This document shows, one piece after another, positions 3,237-15,350 of a stretch of 18,324 bases of DNA. The translations under genes and the position numbers were made by a program. The stretch lies in the IMG/VR virus record IMGVR_UViG_2606217174_000014; one strand, written 5' to 3'. Source of the DNA: a virus (lineage: Duplodnaviria > Heunggongvirae > Uroviricota > Caudoviricetes). Position 1 is the first letter of the stretch, and each line of letters begins with the position of its first letter. The notes under the pieces are model-generated. The model saw nothing but the letters and a program-made list of their open reading frames with translations. It made no database searches and had not been told where the DNA came from.

Positions 3237-3560
3237 CTACTGTAATCGATCCGAACGTAAATGCGGCAAAACTCGACTCCACTTATCATCCTGCCACGGC
3301 CGGAATTTTACATGTGCCGTTTCTCTGGCAAGGATTGCCTGTGCCTTATTGAGTATCTGGGGATATTCTTGCTCGATAGAAGTGAAGCGACCAGCTTCAC
3401 GATGCTCCGCAACCTGAAGAAGAGGAGTAACGTTCTGGTAGGTAATTAACATCACATTCCCTGCTCGCCATAACCAGGCGAGTGTGCAAAGTTCGTTATC
3501 AGTGAATTGTTTTGTGATTGGGTATTGTTGAACTGCTAGAACGAGAACGCCAGCATCCAT
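3237..3560 (-). CDS. Hypothetical protein (107 aa, or ~72 aa from the internal start MLITYQNV...)
   Basis: ORF in the ybcK-downstream region. The first ATG has a weak Shine-Dalgarno; the internal ATG has AGGGA upstream. No family recognised. Confidence 0.3.
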   Translation of the reverse strand: MDAGVLVLAVQQYPITKQFTDNELCTLAWLWRAGNVMLITYQNVTPLLQVAEHREAGRFTSIEQEYPQILNKAQAILARETAHVKFRPWQDDKWSRVLPHLRSDRLQ

Positions 3561-3671
3561 TGGCAGTCTCTATAGTAAAACCATAGCTCAGGACGCTTCG
3601 TTCAGGATAGATAATTTTAATGTACTTACCTAACTTTCTTACTATAGCACGGTTGAAAAAGTGATTATTAC

Positions 3672-5198
3672 TCAAAAATAAACCTCACCATCAACCATAT
3701 ATTTGAGAGTACTTATCGCCTGCTGGGCGGATATTGTTTTCATTAAAGGATAGTGTTTAAAAACAATGCCATTCATAAAATAGATATCACAGGTTTTATT
3801 ATCTGTATTGATTATGATTTTTTCGAATGTTTTATAGGCAAGTGTACGACATAGCTCTCGCCCATTTTTACTGGTTAAGTCAATAGCATGAAAATCACCA
3901 AGTGAACTCACCGCTTTACTCTTCAAAGTTTTTAATGATACAGAAGCCCTTCGTAATTCCTTATCTAATACTCTGATTTTTTCTGCTATAGCGGTAACTT
4001 CAGGCGCAACAGATAATGCAGCAATTAAATTATTAATTTTCATCTGGAGCTCAATAATTTTCAACTCTAAAGTTTCATTAGCATCTTTCTTGTTTTCAAC
4101 TGGTTGGATTTTACTACAATTAAAAAGCAACTCATTAATGATATTATAATCAACCAAATCTCTCTTTATTGATGGCCTGTCACATCGATGCAGTCTTCTC
4201 ATCGGACAAACATAATAGCCATGCAAACTTCTAGATACCGCATGAACAATCATGGTATTACCACAAGCCTCGCACTTCATAACTGTTCGAAGTAGATTTA
4301 TCAACATAGGATTTTTGCTACTATTGCTAATACCAAAAGGTGCCAACCGAATTTCCTGTACAGCGTAAAACAAATCATCTGATATGACTCTGGGATAATA
4401 GCCAGCGATTTCACTTATTCCTTTACCTCTTGCACGATATGAAGGTACGCATATACCTATCAGAGCTTTATTCGCTAATAATTTTTCAATTACAGAAGGT
4501 CCCCATGCACTTTCTTTTCCTGAGAAATTCTTTACAGCATGATCATTTAAATACTTGGCTATTGCATTCAATGAGCGCCTTTCCATCCTGAGTTTAAAAA
4601 TTAGCTCAATAGTTTTCACCCTGTCGGGGTCTGGAACAAAAGCCGTTCTTTTGTCATCTAAGGAGAGCCATCTCGGACAAGACGCCGTCATAATCGTACC
4701 TGATTCCAGTGCATCCTGCCGTTTTTTCTTCCATGATAATTTAACCCGACTTGACTTTATCTCGCTTTCTTCATTTGCCCTTTGTGCTATAAGTATGGCT
4801 TTTATTAATGAATATGGCTCATTCAAAGAGTCAATATTATAGACTGTATTGTCGCAAAGAGTTATAACATCAATACCGTGATTCAAAATCAATTTCAGAC
4901 GTTCAATCGCTTCACCGACTTTTTCTCTTGAAAGTCTGTCCAGACTTTCAACTAACAATGTAGTTCCTGGCAATATATAACCATGCTCTATAGCATCTAA
5001 AAATTCCGAAAAAGCTCCTGATTGTGCATGCTTTCCTTTGAATGCACTTAATCCTAAATCTTCATATGTTATGGTATCAAGATAATAATCACTATTTACC
5101 TTTAACCATTCAGCAATAAGTCTTCTCTGTCGGTTTAATGAGTCGCCAGACATCTGACCTGGTGATGAAAATCGCATATATGCTATGGCTTTTTTCAT
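3672..5198 (-). CDS. ybcK: Large serine recombinase (DLP12 YbcK-like)
   Basis: 508 aa. N-terminal resolvase catalytic motif (AYMRFSSPGQ with the serine nucleophile, then SLNRQ), followed by a recombinase domain, Cys clusters (CEACGN...C...C) and a C-terminal coiled-coil region. AGGTG Shine-Dalgarno. Confidence 0.85.
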   Translation of the reverse strand: MKKAIAYMRFSSPGQMSGDSLNRQRRLIAEWLKVNSDYYLDTITYEDLGLSAFKGKHAQSGAFSEFLDAIEHGYILPGTTLLVESLDRLSREKVGEAIERLKLILNHGIDVITLCDNTVYNIDSLNEPYSLIKAILIAQRANEESEIKSSRVKLSWKKKRQDALESGTIMTASCPRWLSLDDKRTAFVPDPDRVKTIELIFKLRMERRSLNAIAKYLNDHAVKNFSGKESAWGPSVIEKLLANKALIGICVPSYRARGKGISEIAGYYPRVISDDLFYAVQEIRLAPFGISNSSKNPMLINLLRTVMKCEACGNTMIVHAVSRSLHGYYVCPMRRLHRCDRPSIKRDLVDYNIINELLFNCSKIQPVENKKDANETLELKIIELQMKINNLIAALSVAPEVTAIAEKIRVLDKELRRASVSLKTLKSKAVSSLGDFHAIDLTSKNGRELCRTLAYKTFEKIIINTDNKTCDIYFMNGIVFKHYPLMKTISAQQAISTLKYMVDGEVYF

Positions 5199-5453
5199 GG
5201 TGACACCTGCTAACGTATGCTTTTATAAACCTTAGTGGTGGGATATAATTTTGTTTAATTTTTATTTAAAAAGACAATTAAGGTCACATTATCTTGAATA
5301 TACAACAATAATCGTATTGCAATTTTCTTACGCCATAATCTTGAAAGCACAAAAGAATACATAAAAAAATAAAGACATTAACAAAAAGCATAAAACGAGG
5401 CTCATATAAATATAAGAGCCTCCATATTTTAGTCGTTTAGAAACAAATTATTT

Positions 5454-5786
5454 TTAATGTGGTGTGCTTCGTGACAATAAATTAATAACCAACACACCGG
5501 CACAAATCAACATCATGCCTATAATGGCTGGCAGGTCCAGCCGTTGGCCGAAAAGTCCCCATGACAGTAAGCTAATCAGGACAATACCGACTCCTGACCA
5601 GATAGCATAAGCAATCCCTGTAGGAATATAAGCCAGCGTCTGAGCTAATAACCAGAATGATGCACAATAACAAATAATTGTACCAACAGATGGCCATAAC
5701 CGTGTAAAACCTTCTGAAAACTTCATTAAGGTTGTACCAATGACCTCTGCAAGTATTGCACCACCAAGATAAATATAAGGGTTCAT
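5454..5786 (-). CDS. emrE: SMR-family multidrug efflux transporter EmrE
   Basis: ORF 5454..5840; the internal start MNPYIYLGGAILAEVIGTTLMKFSEGFTRLWPSVG... gives a 110-aa four-helix SMR protein matching EmrE. Confidence 0.9.
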   Translation of the reverse strand: MNPYIYLGGAILAEVIGTTLMKFSEGFTRLWPSVGTIICYCASFWLLAQTLAYIPTGIAYAIWSGVGIVLISLLSWGLFGQRLDLPAIIGMMLICAGVLVINLLSRSTPH

Positions 5787-5853
5787 AGAATATTCTTTCC
5801 TGTTCAAACTGGAGAGAATTGTACTACAGTTTGAACTCAACTCACCTGTTTCA

Positions 5854-12875: not shown

Positions 12876-13097
12876 ATGGCAGACATCATTGATTCAGCAT
12901 CAGAAATTGAAGAATTACAGCGCAACACAGCAATAAAAATGCGCCGCCTGAACCACCAGGCTATATCTGCCACTCATTGTTGTGAGTGTGGCGATCCGAT
13001 AGATGAACGAAGACGCCTGGTCGTTCAGGGTTGTCGGACTTGTGCAAGTTGCCAGGAAGATCTGGAGCTTATCAGTAAACAGAGAGGTTCGAAGTGA
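12876..13097 (+). CDS. TraR/DksA-family C4 zinc-finger protein (lambda Orf73-like)
   Basis: 73 aa with CCECGD...x17...CRTCASC, the DksA/TraR zinc-finger pattern. Confidence 0.8.
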   Translation: MADIIDSASEIEELQRNTAIKMRRLNHQAISATHCCECGDPIDERRRLVVQGCRTCASCQEDLELISKQRGSK

Positions 13098-13396
13098 GCG
13101 AAATTAACTCTCAGGCACTGCGTGAAGCGGCAGAGCAGGCAATGCATGACGACTGGGGATTTGACGCAGACCTTTTCCATGAATTGGTAACACCATCGAT
13201 TGTGCTGGAACTGCTGGATGAGCGGGAAAGAAACCAGCAATACATCAAACGCCGCGACCAGGAGAACGAGGAAATTGCGCTAACGGTAGGAAAGCTGCGC
13301 GTTGAGCTGGAAGCAGCAAAATCAAAACTCAACGAGCAGCGTGAATATTACGAAGGTGTTATCTCGGATGGAAGTAAGCGTATTGCTGAACTGTAG
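13094..13396 (+). CDS. Ea22-like protein, apparently C-terminally truncated (100 aa)
   Basis: MSEINSQALREAAEQAMHDDWGFDADLFHELV...; the coiled-coil N-terminal part resembles lambda Ea22 as I recall it. It ends at tandem stops (TAGGCCTAG) where foreign AT-rich DNA begins. Confidence 0.55.
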   Translation: MSEINSQALREAAEQAMHDDWGFDADLFHELVTPSIVLELLDERERNQQYIKRRDQENEEIALTVGKLRVELEAAKSKLNEQREYYEGVISDGSKRIAEL

Positions 13397-13646
13397 GCCT
13401 AGGTTGAGTGTACAAGATTTGCATACGTAAGAGCAAAAGACAAGGGAGAATTGATCAGAGTTATTACCTGCCAACCAACGGGATATTACGCTTACGTACC
13501 ATGTAACTAGGAATCCTTGAAGTGGCAGCCTAACTGTGGATACACTGAAATGGCGATTTGGTAACATGTTTCGCACAAGGCTGTTACTACGCTTAGAGAT
13601 AATCAGTCATGATTAAATGCTTTGTAAAAAGTAAAAGGAAATTACA

Positions 13647-14261
13647 ATGAAAAAATCAACACTAATTTTAGGGCTTACGTTAATTGTCTCATCTCAAATA
13701 CCATCGGCAATGGCAAAAAATGAATCAAAACTTTGGGTTGTTGTTGATCGAACGGAAAGACATACCTGCCCTTCAAGTAAATGTGGAGTGGCTGGGAAAC
13801 TATTTTTCAGGGAAGGCGTAGATTTTCTAGAAAAAAAAGGTGAATGGGTTCGTATAACTGAGCCATATTCAGCCTCATGTGTGGGAGGGGAAAGCGAATA
13901 TATTAAAGAAGGTAATAAATCCTGCACAAGAAAAAACGGAATCGTTAATGGCAAGTTTTCAGAATGGGTTAAACTTAGTGATCTTAGCAGTGAAAGGCCA
14001 TCAGATCCTGCTGAAAATGCGAGCAGAAATGATACCTTAATCAAAGGATCTGATGACTACCGTATATACAAAAAAGAGTTTTCTTCGGCAGCTAGGAAGT
14101 TAATAAGTGAAGGTGTCTGCACGGAGAGCGATTTTAAGGAAGTTGGAGGGTGGATGGCATCAAGCAATAAGGGTGAAAACATCTATTTCACATATTGCGG
14201 AGGAATGACGTTGTCGAACAGAATATATCTAGACGTTAAAAGTGGAAAGACTTTTAGATAA
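13647..14261 (+). CDS. Secreted Cys-rich hypothetical protein (204 aa, Sec signal peptide, predicted periplasmic)
   Basis: N-terminal MKKSTLILGLTLIVSSQIPSAMA|KN (AxA cleavage site, no lipobox); the mature part has 8 Cys; AAGGA Shine-Dalgarno; AT-rich. Confidence 0.7.
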   Translation: MKKSTLILGLTLIVSSQIPSAMAKNESKLWVVVDRTERHTCPSSKCGVAGKLFFREGVDFLEKKGEWVRITEPYSASCVGGESEYIKEGNKSCTRKNGIVNGKFSEWVKLSDLSSERPSDPAENASRNDTLIKGSDDYRIYKKEFSSAARKLISEGVCTESDFKEVGGWMASSNKGENIYFTYCGGMTLSNRIYLDVKSGKTFR

Positions 14262-14554
14262 TATGATATTACCAATGACAGCATTAATTTAATGCCTCCA
14301 TAGAATTATCTCTAGGAAGTAAGTATAAGAAAAGTCCGCACAATGAGCTGCTGCGGGCTTTGTGTTATTCGCCATATTTTATGAAGCAAATACGACACTA
14401 TAGATAATTAAGCGTTACTGGTTGTCGATTCCTCACTCATTCCTGCTGATGGCTGTCTTCTTGTATGTGTCATTGAAGGGTAATATCGCGTAAAAAGATA
14501 CCGGAAGTATCCGCGCCGCCATGATTGTCTTTCTCCTGATGCAGGAAAAGCAGA

Positions 14555-14893
14555 ATGACTAAATCAGCAGCAGAGCGCAAAGCCGATCAGAGAGCCAAGC
14601 AAGCATCATCCGGTATGCGTAAGCTGGAGCTTGTACTTGATGCTCAGGAAATTGAAATGCTGGAGCGTAACTGAGCCACGCGCCGCTTCAGGCGTGCGCC
14701 TTACGAGTTTGGTGAGTACATAGCGTTACTGAGCCGCCAGGATGATGCACGTGTGCGCTGGCGTATAAAATCGATTAGCAGAAAACGTTGCCGTAAGTGC
14801 GGCGAGAGAGTTCCTGTTAATTCATGCCCGTGTAATGGTGACTCACAATACTGGGTGACCAAAGGCTGGCACGAAACAAAATTAATGATATAA
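14555..14893 (+). pseudogene. Zinc-ribbon small-protein gene interrupted by an in-frame TGA (39 aa, stop, 72 aa)
   Basis: Manual translation MTKSAAERKADQRAKQASSGMRKLELVLDAQEIEMLERN*ATRRFRRAPYEFGEYIALLSRQDDARVRWRIKSISRKRCRKCGERVPVNSCPCNGDSQYWVTKGWHETKLMI. One continuous frame with a TGA at 14672-14674. Confidence 0.4.
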
Positions 14894-14921: not shown

Positions 14922-15350
14922 ATGAAATTAGACCAGCAATATCTAAAAGATCTACTTATCGCATTCGAAAAAACTTATGGCCCTGACACGATGCTTAGTG
15001 AACTAGAGGATAATGGCTTTAATAGATATGACCAAAATTTTATTTTCCATATGCGATTATTATGTGACTACGAATTAATAGTTAGGGTTGATGGAAAACC
15101 TGGGTTCGGTCATATAATGTCCAACGAGTTAGGGGAAGGTGTTGAATATAGTTGGATCGAAGTACCACTGAGGTTGACAGCAAGAGGGCATGATTTTATT
15201 GCTGACTTACGTCAAAAGGAGGTCTGGCAAGCTATAAAAACAAACTTTAAGGATGAGGGGATTAGTACTCTTATGAGTGTTTCAAAATCACTAGCAAAAG
15301 GCTTTGCAAGAAAAAAAATAAAAGATATTACAGGAATAGATATTGAATAA
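14922..15350 (+). CDS. Hypothetical protein, 142 aa, AT-rich orphan
   Basis: GGAGG Shine-Dalgarno 6 nt upstream of the ATG; followed by an intrinsic terminator; no family recognised. Confidence 0.65.
   Translation: MKLDQQYLKDLLIAFEKTYGPDTMLSELEDNGFNRYDQNFIFHMRLLCDYELIVRVDGKPGFGHIMSNELGEGVEYSWIEVPLRLTARGHDFIADLRQKEVWQAIKTNFKDEGISTLMSVSKSLAKGFARKKIKDITGIDIE

Follow-up and report, generated by a model that had tools for sequence, protein, structure and literature searches.

What does a small exported protein do when a temperate phage carries its gene as cargo, and how is such a gene expressed? The question is raised by nucleotides 13647-14261 of the 18,324-nucleotide stretch of Caudoviricetes DNA analysed here (the window), which the first-pass annotation had described as encoding a secreted, cysteine-rich protein within a cargo block. 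The window is 99.9% identical to part of Escherichia coli E7476, where a complete lambdoid prophage is inserted beside ybhC. The gene sits in the early-left accessory region. It is bordered on one side by gam/bet/exo, a gene of TraR/DksA type and an ea22-like gene that is truncated, and on the opposite side by DUF2513, xis and int; this placement agrees with the proposed cargo block, and phage Chlobot has the gene at the equivalent position. We conclude that the gene product is an exported phage moron with two unusual features, namely a conserved domain without known fold relatives and a promoter plus leader that come from a plasmid copy-control RNA.

The open reading frame, called here with the same limits as before, is a real gene. 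Purifying selection on it is strong, as comparison with the P1-like copy (84% identical) gives a dN/dS of 0.095 and comparison with phage Chlobot one of 0.17. PHROG 8310, a family with no assigned function, matches residues 1-204 of 204 (E 7.2e-135), and an antisense frame at 13694-14044 (-) was discarded as the shadow of the real plus-strand frame. The gene is AT-rich, as had been noticed, with 38.5% GC against 46% for the window and roughly 48-53% for the flanking phage genes, and the Shine-Dalgarno sequence previously called strong, AAGGA, was rated good in our analysis as well. Only 133 of 5426 complete E. coli genomes carry the gene, always annotated as "hypothetical protein", so that it must be considered dispensable. 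The features assigned to the locus are collected in Table 1.

Table 1. Features of the cassette and its immediate surroundings, in window coordinates.
Feature	Position	Strand	Basis and remarks
Mobile cassette	13505..14263	+	84% identity between the lambdoid window and P1/P7-like phage-plasmids (blastn, L013/L014; alignment)
Candidate sigma-70 promoter, TTGAAG-18 nt-TACACT	13517..13546	+	8/12 consensus matches (relaxed scan); homologous to the ColE1-type RNA I promoter
5' leader from the RNA I gene	13553..13634	+	Stem-loop 1 kept, stem-loop 2 shortened, third hairpin/terminator lost
Shine-Dalgarno AAGGA	13635..13639	+	Spaced 7 nt from the ATG; unpaired in the leader's predicted fold
CDS	13647..14261	+	ATG start, 204 aa plus stop; full-length PHROG 8310 match; dN/dS ~0.1
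Predicted Sec type-I signal peptide, residues 1-23	13647..13715	+	n/h/c pattern; predicted cleavage AMA|KN; low pLDDT at residues 1-24; family-wide export signals
SH3b-type beta domain, residues ~28-110	13728..13976	+	C41-x4-C46 loop; ~25-residue insertion clamped by C78/C93
Linker, residues 111-128	13977..14030	+	Near-invariant R117-P118-x-D120-P121; alignment and models
C-terminal alpha+beta domain, residues 129-204	14031..14258	+	Helices 138-154 and 160-166; three strands; C158/C184
Hairpin (~10 bp) plus TTGTGTTATT, possible intrinsic terminator	14331..14369	+	70 nt after the stop codon; RNA fold; common to Chlobot; outside the mobile cassette

The limits of the mobile unit emerged from the comparison of the lambdoid window with P1/P7-like phage-plasmids of E. 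fergusonii. The shared segment starts 12 nt before the -35 hexamer, includes 142 bp upstream of the ATG and finishes with the stop codon. Lambdoid fragments on large IncA and other plasmids likewise contain the enterobacterial cassette. Homologues of 60-68% identity, which have no RNA I leader, occur in an Aeromonas prophage, between a Q-like antiterminator and the lysis genes, and in Pseudomonas, where the homologue is the first gene after the tyrosine integrase of a small conserved island (L002, L007-L010, L015, L017, L018). This island also encodes a KilA-N-like regulator, a DUF6971-like protein and a protein of ~337 aa, and in some genomes lies near nadB/rpoE. Altogether, mobile elements of five kinds exchange the gene as one unit, and its enterobacterial, Aeromonas and Pseudomonas copies are always single-gene cargo of such elements. 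Its GC content lies under the local value in the P1-like, Pseudomonas and Aeromonas settings too. Such a deviant GC is a mark of morons, and the earlier reading as a prophage moron is strengthened by the captured promoter that accompanies the gene. Lipoprotein homologues at a greater distance are instead ordinary chromosomal genes, with metW, pheST and rplT as neighbours and without signs of a mobile element.

Several observations concern the surroundings of the cassette. The ead/Ea22-like frame at window 13094-13396 (+) is truncated, and related genomes annotate its C-terminus as missing; as the cassette boundary at 13505 lies ~110 bp past it, the insertion may have removed the remainder of ea22. 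Downstream, 100 bp (window 14418-14517) are ~72% identical to part of a humD/umuD-like S24 peptidase gene (L013 3822-3921). In the P1-like element this gene stands immediately upstream of the cassette, and Chlobot has an intact UmuD-like gene at the place that matches window 14418-14517. From these sequence similarities, lambdoid and P1-like phages may have exchanged the cassette by way of their common umuD-like sequence. The nearby umuD-like remnants prompted a scan for a LexA box near the gene, which found none.

In the P1-like element (L013/L014 4956-6949, -) the cassette adjoins a Tad2-like (anti-Thoeris) gene and a dUTPase gene, in what is an accessory/counter-defence region. A DUF2971 protein is encoded near the family gene in two unrelated mobile contexts, the Aeromonas prophage (L005 5981-6859) and an element from a metagenome (L060 3372-4214) that also encodes a resolvase, a KAP NTPase and a primase of VapE type; this co-occurrence may be coincidental. 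In E. coli SZQ1 (L054, NZ_CP174001.1), a near-identical lambdoid genome was deposited as a circular "plasmid" of 43,337 bp with a 99.8% identical cassette; this suggests an excised or replicating phage form, and hence an active phage. Two short frames at window 14555-14893 (+) correspond to a single gene, which the E7476 and SZQ1 annotations list as a pseudogene interrupted by a stop, and the IncA plasmid pA18-1 has an intact 339-bp gene at the counterpart position. The DUF2513 gene beside xis/int, a further accessory gene, is intact in the window (14922-15350, +; 142 aa, ~36% GC) and frameshifted in E7476. Furthermore, an AT-rich block in the nin region (3500-5800, -; 31-38% GC) holds a large ybcK-like serine recombinase of 508 aa and, if the annotation of E7476 is carried over, emrE for an SMR efflux protein; the block is cargo of the DLP12 type within a lambdoid prophage that is otherwise complete.

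We found that the 5' flank of the gene is ~84% identical, on the gene's strand, to the segment of ColRNAI plasmids that comprises the RNA I promoter and RNA I stem-loops 1 and 2. A plasmid search with the cassette block returned 365 records that match window 13516-13618 at 80-90% identity (E ~7e-20). Escherichia, Enterobacter and Klebsiella lead among the genera overall, the matches listed at 80-90% identity are 3-5 kb Klebsiella pneumoniae plasmids, and both small plasmids inspected were typed as ColRNAI. Moreover, the Rfam RNAI model scored 78.6 bits on one of these plasmids (L055, 1039-1140), starting 7 nt after TACACT and coinciding exactly with the aligned segment on the gene's strand. 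Given the plasmid matches and the mapping of RNAI onto the aligned segment, the upstream flank is an eroded copy of the RNA I promoter and stem-loops 1-2. The same model (RF00106) gave no match on the window even at E<=10, which is consistent with stem-loops that are eroded and partly lost. A SAM-III identity for this region was rejected, as 20 bits against a 45-bit cut-off is a chance score.

The hexamers TTGAAG (13517-13522) and TACACT (13541-13546) show no change among the copies of the window, Chlobot, the P1-like element and the Klebsiella ColRNAI plasmid, in contrast to the variable 18-nt spacer between them. The candidate promoter was absent from the output of a stricter consensus scan, and its activity is predicted from homology; the RNA I promoter of ColE1 is a constitutive sigma-70 promoter. 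The leader retains the RNA I 5' tail GAUUUGG, and where RNA I has its terminator hairpin the cassette has AAAAGTAAAAGGAAATTACA-ATG, the source of the ribosome-binding site. Hence, whereas ColE1 RNA I folds into three stem-loops, the leader described here has no third hairpin/terminator and continues into the site of translation initiation. An RNA II promoter and an origin are both absent. In Citrobacter braakii, a ColRNAI plasmid of 5.3 kb has a homologue of 204 codons that lies ~350 nt downstream from RNA I, a layout that, from its sequence, looks like the ancestral arrangement. We found nothing in the literature on capture of an RNA I promoter by phages. At the other end of the transcript, the possible terminator hairpin was missed by a consensus scan; manual base pairing gives it a loop of 11 nt, and the probable reason is that the scan allows loops of 3-8 nt.

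One might ask whether the leader RNA is functional in its own right, besides or instead of the protein, as an RNA I look-alike that pairs with RNA II of ColE1-type plasmids and lowers their copy number. The RNA I promoter, the 5' tail and stem-loop 1 are all kept, and the loop of the latter, CGCACAA, is identical to the RNA I loop of Klebsiella/Enterobacter ColRNAI plasmids, so that pairing between the mRNA leader and the RNA II of these plasmids might still occur. However, the damage to stem-loops 2 and 3 and the silence of the Rfam model speak against such a role, as do the predicted leader folds, which differ between Chlobot and the P1-like copy, the lack of this leader from the copies of Pseudomonas and Aeromonas, and the strong purifying selection on the protein. 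We consider a regulatory role of the leader very improbable, the least probable of the alternatives weighed here; the leader is no longer an RNA I.

We next consider the protein itself, for which a Sec signal peptide cut at AMA|KN and the lack of a lipobox had been proposed. The N-terminus consists of MKK, STLILGLTLIVSS and QIPSAMA|KN; it has a hydrophobic core of 13 residues and obeys the -3/-1 rule, in line with the proposed signal peptide, and homologues keep the pattern with a differing sequence. We infer export from the n/h/c pattern together with the signal peptides, lipoboxes and long N-terminal extensions found across the family. Sequence inspection found no lipobox, there being no Cys at +1 and none before residue 41, which bears out the earlier assignment as a non-lipoprotein; LPAM_1 scored below cut-off (E 0.18) in the Pfam scan of the protein.

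The count of eight cysteines in the mature protein was wrong, as there are six (C41, C46, C78, C93, C158 and C184), while the proposal that they form disulfides gained ground. All six are invariant in an alignment of 39 homologues, down to 43% identity, and among ~240 relatives they are gained or lost strictly by pair, as 41/46, 78/93 and 158/184. This co-loss argues for three sequential disulfides, of which two would clamp loops added to the SH3b core described below and the third would lie within the C-terminal domain. These sequence data support the view that the protein is an exported, disulfide-bearing, non-lipoprotein prophage cargo.

Structure prediction and a fold search, proposed as checks by the first-pass annotation, placed one half of the protein: the N-terminal domain is of SH3b type and the C-terminal domain has no relative in the fold search. 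The AlphaFold2 model, built on 39 homologues, has a mean pLDDT of 89.4, with residues 30-204 mostly >90. Its N-terminal domain is predicted as an SH3-like beta-barrel that matches solved SH3b domains, such as those of endolysins, lysostaphin and NlpC/P60 endopeptidases (e.g. PDB 9ovi, 3pvq, 4krt, 6rk4 and 3h41). Pfam SH3_3 (PF08239) reached 16 bits over query residues 40-72 (E 0.014), under its 27-bit gathering cut-off; several homologues have a precomputed match to this model, and the homologue P0082 scores 26.7 bits. A PDB search with the family profile gave one weak SH3 match, 2krs. In the same search, matches to de novo TIM-barrel designs held no single significant stretch and were dismissed as a composition artefact, and a C-type lectin match in the PDB sequence search (E 1.1) was attributed to chance. 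On the strength of the model, the N-terminal domain belongs structurally to the SH3b superfamily, despite the failed Pfam sequence cut-off.

In contrast to the SH3b proteins named above, this protein has no catalytic domain and carries two extra disulfide-clamped loops (C41-C46 and C78-C93). The first of these differences bears on the idea that it is a helper of the lytic cycle, made mainly from pL during phage growth and loosening the wall for lysis or progeny release. The gene does lie in the pL early-left operon, co-oriented with exo/bet/gam and xis/int, and SH3b domains are typical of endolysins. On the other hand, besides the lack of a catalytic domain in the protein, the gene stands outside the lysis cassette, brings along a promoter-like element and is also carried by elements without a lytic cycle. 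A lytic helper is therefore improbable in our opinion, if a little less so than a functional leader RNA.

The linker between the two domains is modelled with a pLDDT of 88-98 in the full protein and of 51-58 when the C-terminal part is modelled by itself. Because it is confidently placed only in the presence of SH3b, the RPxDP linker probably packs on this domain, where, according to the model, it might occupy the SH3b groove. The C-terminal domain is predicted by AlphaFold2 to fold into two helices and a three-stranded sheet, and its conserved motifs are SDD, GGW, YFTYCGG and NRIYLD. No model in Pfam, NCBIfam or PADLOC matched this domain. Likewise, the whole protein found no family in NCBIfam, none in PADLOC at E<=0.01 and none in Pfam above threshold.

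The family to which the protein belongs is large, and no member of it is characterised; a literature search with the protein's accession found nothing. Homologues number 79 by word-indexed search and 816 clusters at 50% identity by exhaustive profile search. All nameable hosts are diderms, including Pseudomonas, Aeromonas, Vibrio, Marinobacter, Rhizobium, Betaproteobacteria, Campylobacterota, Acidobacteriota and others. Among the members examined, 71 start with a signal-peptide-like sequence, 22 with a lipobox and 49 with a long N-terminal extension; several of these extensions are a cytoplasmic zinc ribbon followed by a membrane span, and one has ankyrin repeats. The C-terminal domain also follows plain SH3_3 repeats that have no cysteine loops, and occurs alone in proteins of ~100-110 residues made of a signal peptide and the domain. 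A profile search with this domain for enzyme fusions returned only small stand-alone or truncated proteins.

The export and anchor signals of the family, its diderm hosts and the recurrence of the domain place the module outside the cytoplasmic membrane. Judging from these sequence comparisons, the recurrence of the C-terminal domain fits an effector module with interchangeable targeting parts, and suggests that this domain is the working part and SH3b the targeting part. Neighbourhood clustering of 47 loci revealed no conserved gene partner outside the Pseudomonas island, and Pfam and PHROG scans of the neighbour genes yielded just KilA-N-like regulators and DUFs. Since no neighbour gene is conserved across lineages, a dedicated toxin/effector partner is unlikely.

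Considering all the above results, we hold it very probable that the locus is captured-promoter cargo encoding an exported protein with an SH3b domain and a novel domain. Transcription would start at ~13553 from the former RNA I promoter and would be constitutive and repressor-independent, in which case the protein would be made in lysogens. With the RNA I terminator lost, transcription would run into the Shine-Dalgarno sequence and the ATG. The product would leave the cytoplasm through Sec and lose its signal peptide at A23, after which DsbA would form the disulfides C41-C46, C78-C93 and C158-C184. The SH3b domain would then dock the protein on peptidoglycan, a step that, resting on the predicted fold, we give even chances; SH3b domains are able to bind ligands besides peptidoglycan. 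Docked in this way, the protein would present its C-terminal domain to a wall-directed activity.

The C-terminal domain would most likely bind and neutralise, or modulate, such a cell-wall-directed activity. Candidate targets are a lysozyme-like bacteriocin, a type VI amidase or muramidase, the wall-piercing enzyme of an incoming phage, or a host hydrolase, and the outcome would be protection of the carrier cell's envelope, to the benefit of the mobile element. A protective or inhibitory role is favoured by the repeated pick-up of the gene by unrelated mobile elements, by the fact that no partner gene is needed, by the lack of catalytic features, and by the alternation of soluble, lipid-anchored and membrane-anchored forms, as in periplasmic immunity proteins. 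Taken by itself, this role is a tentative assignment, to which we attach a low probability. The explanation as a whole, a self-contained moron cassette for a soluble, two-domain, peptidoglycan-docked protective factor of the periplasm, is our best one, at a likelihood that falls somewhat short of even. Counting against it are the SH3_3 score below cut-off, the 8/12 promoter match and the silence of RNAI on the window, as well as the lack of a toxin/effector neighbour and of a PADLOC or NCBIfam match.

Alternatively, the protein may serve the envelope in general, with no role against attackers, as a spacer or tether or as a regulator of the cell's own wall enzymes, its mobile copies reflecting a modest gain or mere hitch-hiking. 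This would suit a family spread broadly over Proteobacteria, Campylobacterota, Acidobacteriota and other groups, whose lipoprotein and membrane-anchored variants could tether the membrane to the wall and which has no conserved toxin/effector neighbour. The distant lipoprotein homologues amid core genes point in the same direction, although their ordinary chromosomal setting fits a housekeeping role in the envelope as well as a protective one. Against a general role stand the exclusively mobile, single-gene occurrence in enterobacteria, Aeromonas and Pseudomonas, the dispensability implied by the rarity of the gene in E. coli, and the fact that the soluble version cannot tether by itself. We regard a general envelope role as unlikely, yet as the most serious of the alternatives to a protective factor.

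Superinfection exclusion or receptor masking, in which adsorption or DNA entry is blocked as by Cor, Llp and Sie proteins, had headed the list of roles considered at the outset. An exported protein encoded in the accessory region of a prophage would be a natural candidate, the same region of Chlobot carries sieB and ral, and constitutive expression would suit such a function. However, Cor and Llp are outer-membrane lipoproteins, whereas the protein described here has no lipobox; it resembles no PADLOC, Pfam or PHROG family of known function; and its gene is also carried by elements other than phages, namely a ColRNAI plasmid and the Pseudomonas integrase islands. The SH3b fold, moreover, would direct the protein to the wall and not to an outer-membrane receptor. 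As this fold indicates the peptidoglycan layer, an inhibitor or protector is the most compatible of the roles on that list and receptor masking the least; we consider exclusion improbable, only slightly less so than a helper of the lytic cycle.

Comparison with known systems helps to locate the protective factor that we favour. Like the protein described here, whose gene has a deviant GC and candidate transcription signals of its own, the classical lambdoid moron products and exclusion lipoproteins Bor/Iss, Lom, Cor and Llp are exported accessory proteins of temperate phages; the same prophage also carries Lom and Iss. Unlike them, our protein is neither a lipoprotein nor an outer-membrane barrel, is encoded in the early-left and not the late region, and has no relation to them in sequence or fold. 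The lysozyme inhibitors Ivy, MliC/PliC and PliG resemble it as small, disulfide-containing proteins of the periplasm; none of them was matched in Pfam, and the folds differ. The spacing of its C-x4-C loop resembles that of the CKPHDC loop of Ivy, which we note as a lead only. The protein falls outside every known lysozyme-inhibitor, exclusion and defence family searched.

By analogy, its nearest functional counterpart in the Gram-negative envelope is TagV of Serratia marcescens, an SH3b lipoprotein and type VI secretion accessory proposed to bind peptidoglycan (PMC7614798). Compared by description, both have an SH3b domain outside the cytoplasm and, behind it, a small C-terminal part that contains a single disulfide, a predicted one in the protein described here (PMC7614798). 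On the other hand, TagV is a lipoprotein, is encoded in a type VI cluster and has a C-terminal part of ~27 residues (PMC7614798), whereas the protein described here is predicted to be soluble and is encoded by a stand-alone, mobile gene.

Temperate phages encode many exported proteins that are unexplained, and this one comes from a large uncharacterised family and contains a domain without known fold relatives. It has a likely address at the cell wall and unusually clear signs of selection as portable cargo. A bolder and quite unlikely extension, less probable than a general envelope role, is that the C-terminal module defines a family, both new and widespread, of extracytoplasmic proteins that are anchored to the wall and confer immunity to, or inhibit, peptidoglycan-directed weapons such as lysozyme-like bacteriocins, type VI wall effectors and the wall-piercing enzymes of phages. 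They would be traded as single-gene cargo among phages, phage-plasmids, ColE1 plasmids and integrase islands and, in enterobacteria, kept permanently on by a promoter stolen from the ColE1 copy-control RNA, with a leader that perhaps interferes with resident ColE1 plasmids. The locus offers a tidy example of a plasmid copy-control element recycled as promoter and leader for a cargo gene, and the capture of the RNA I promoter predicts that the protein is made in every lysogen. If it does protect the wall against the enzymes of competitors or phages, it would represent a new class among periplasmic immunity and inhibitor proteins.
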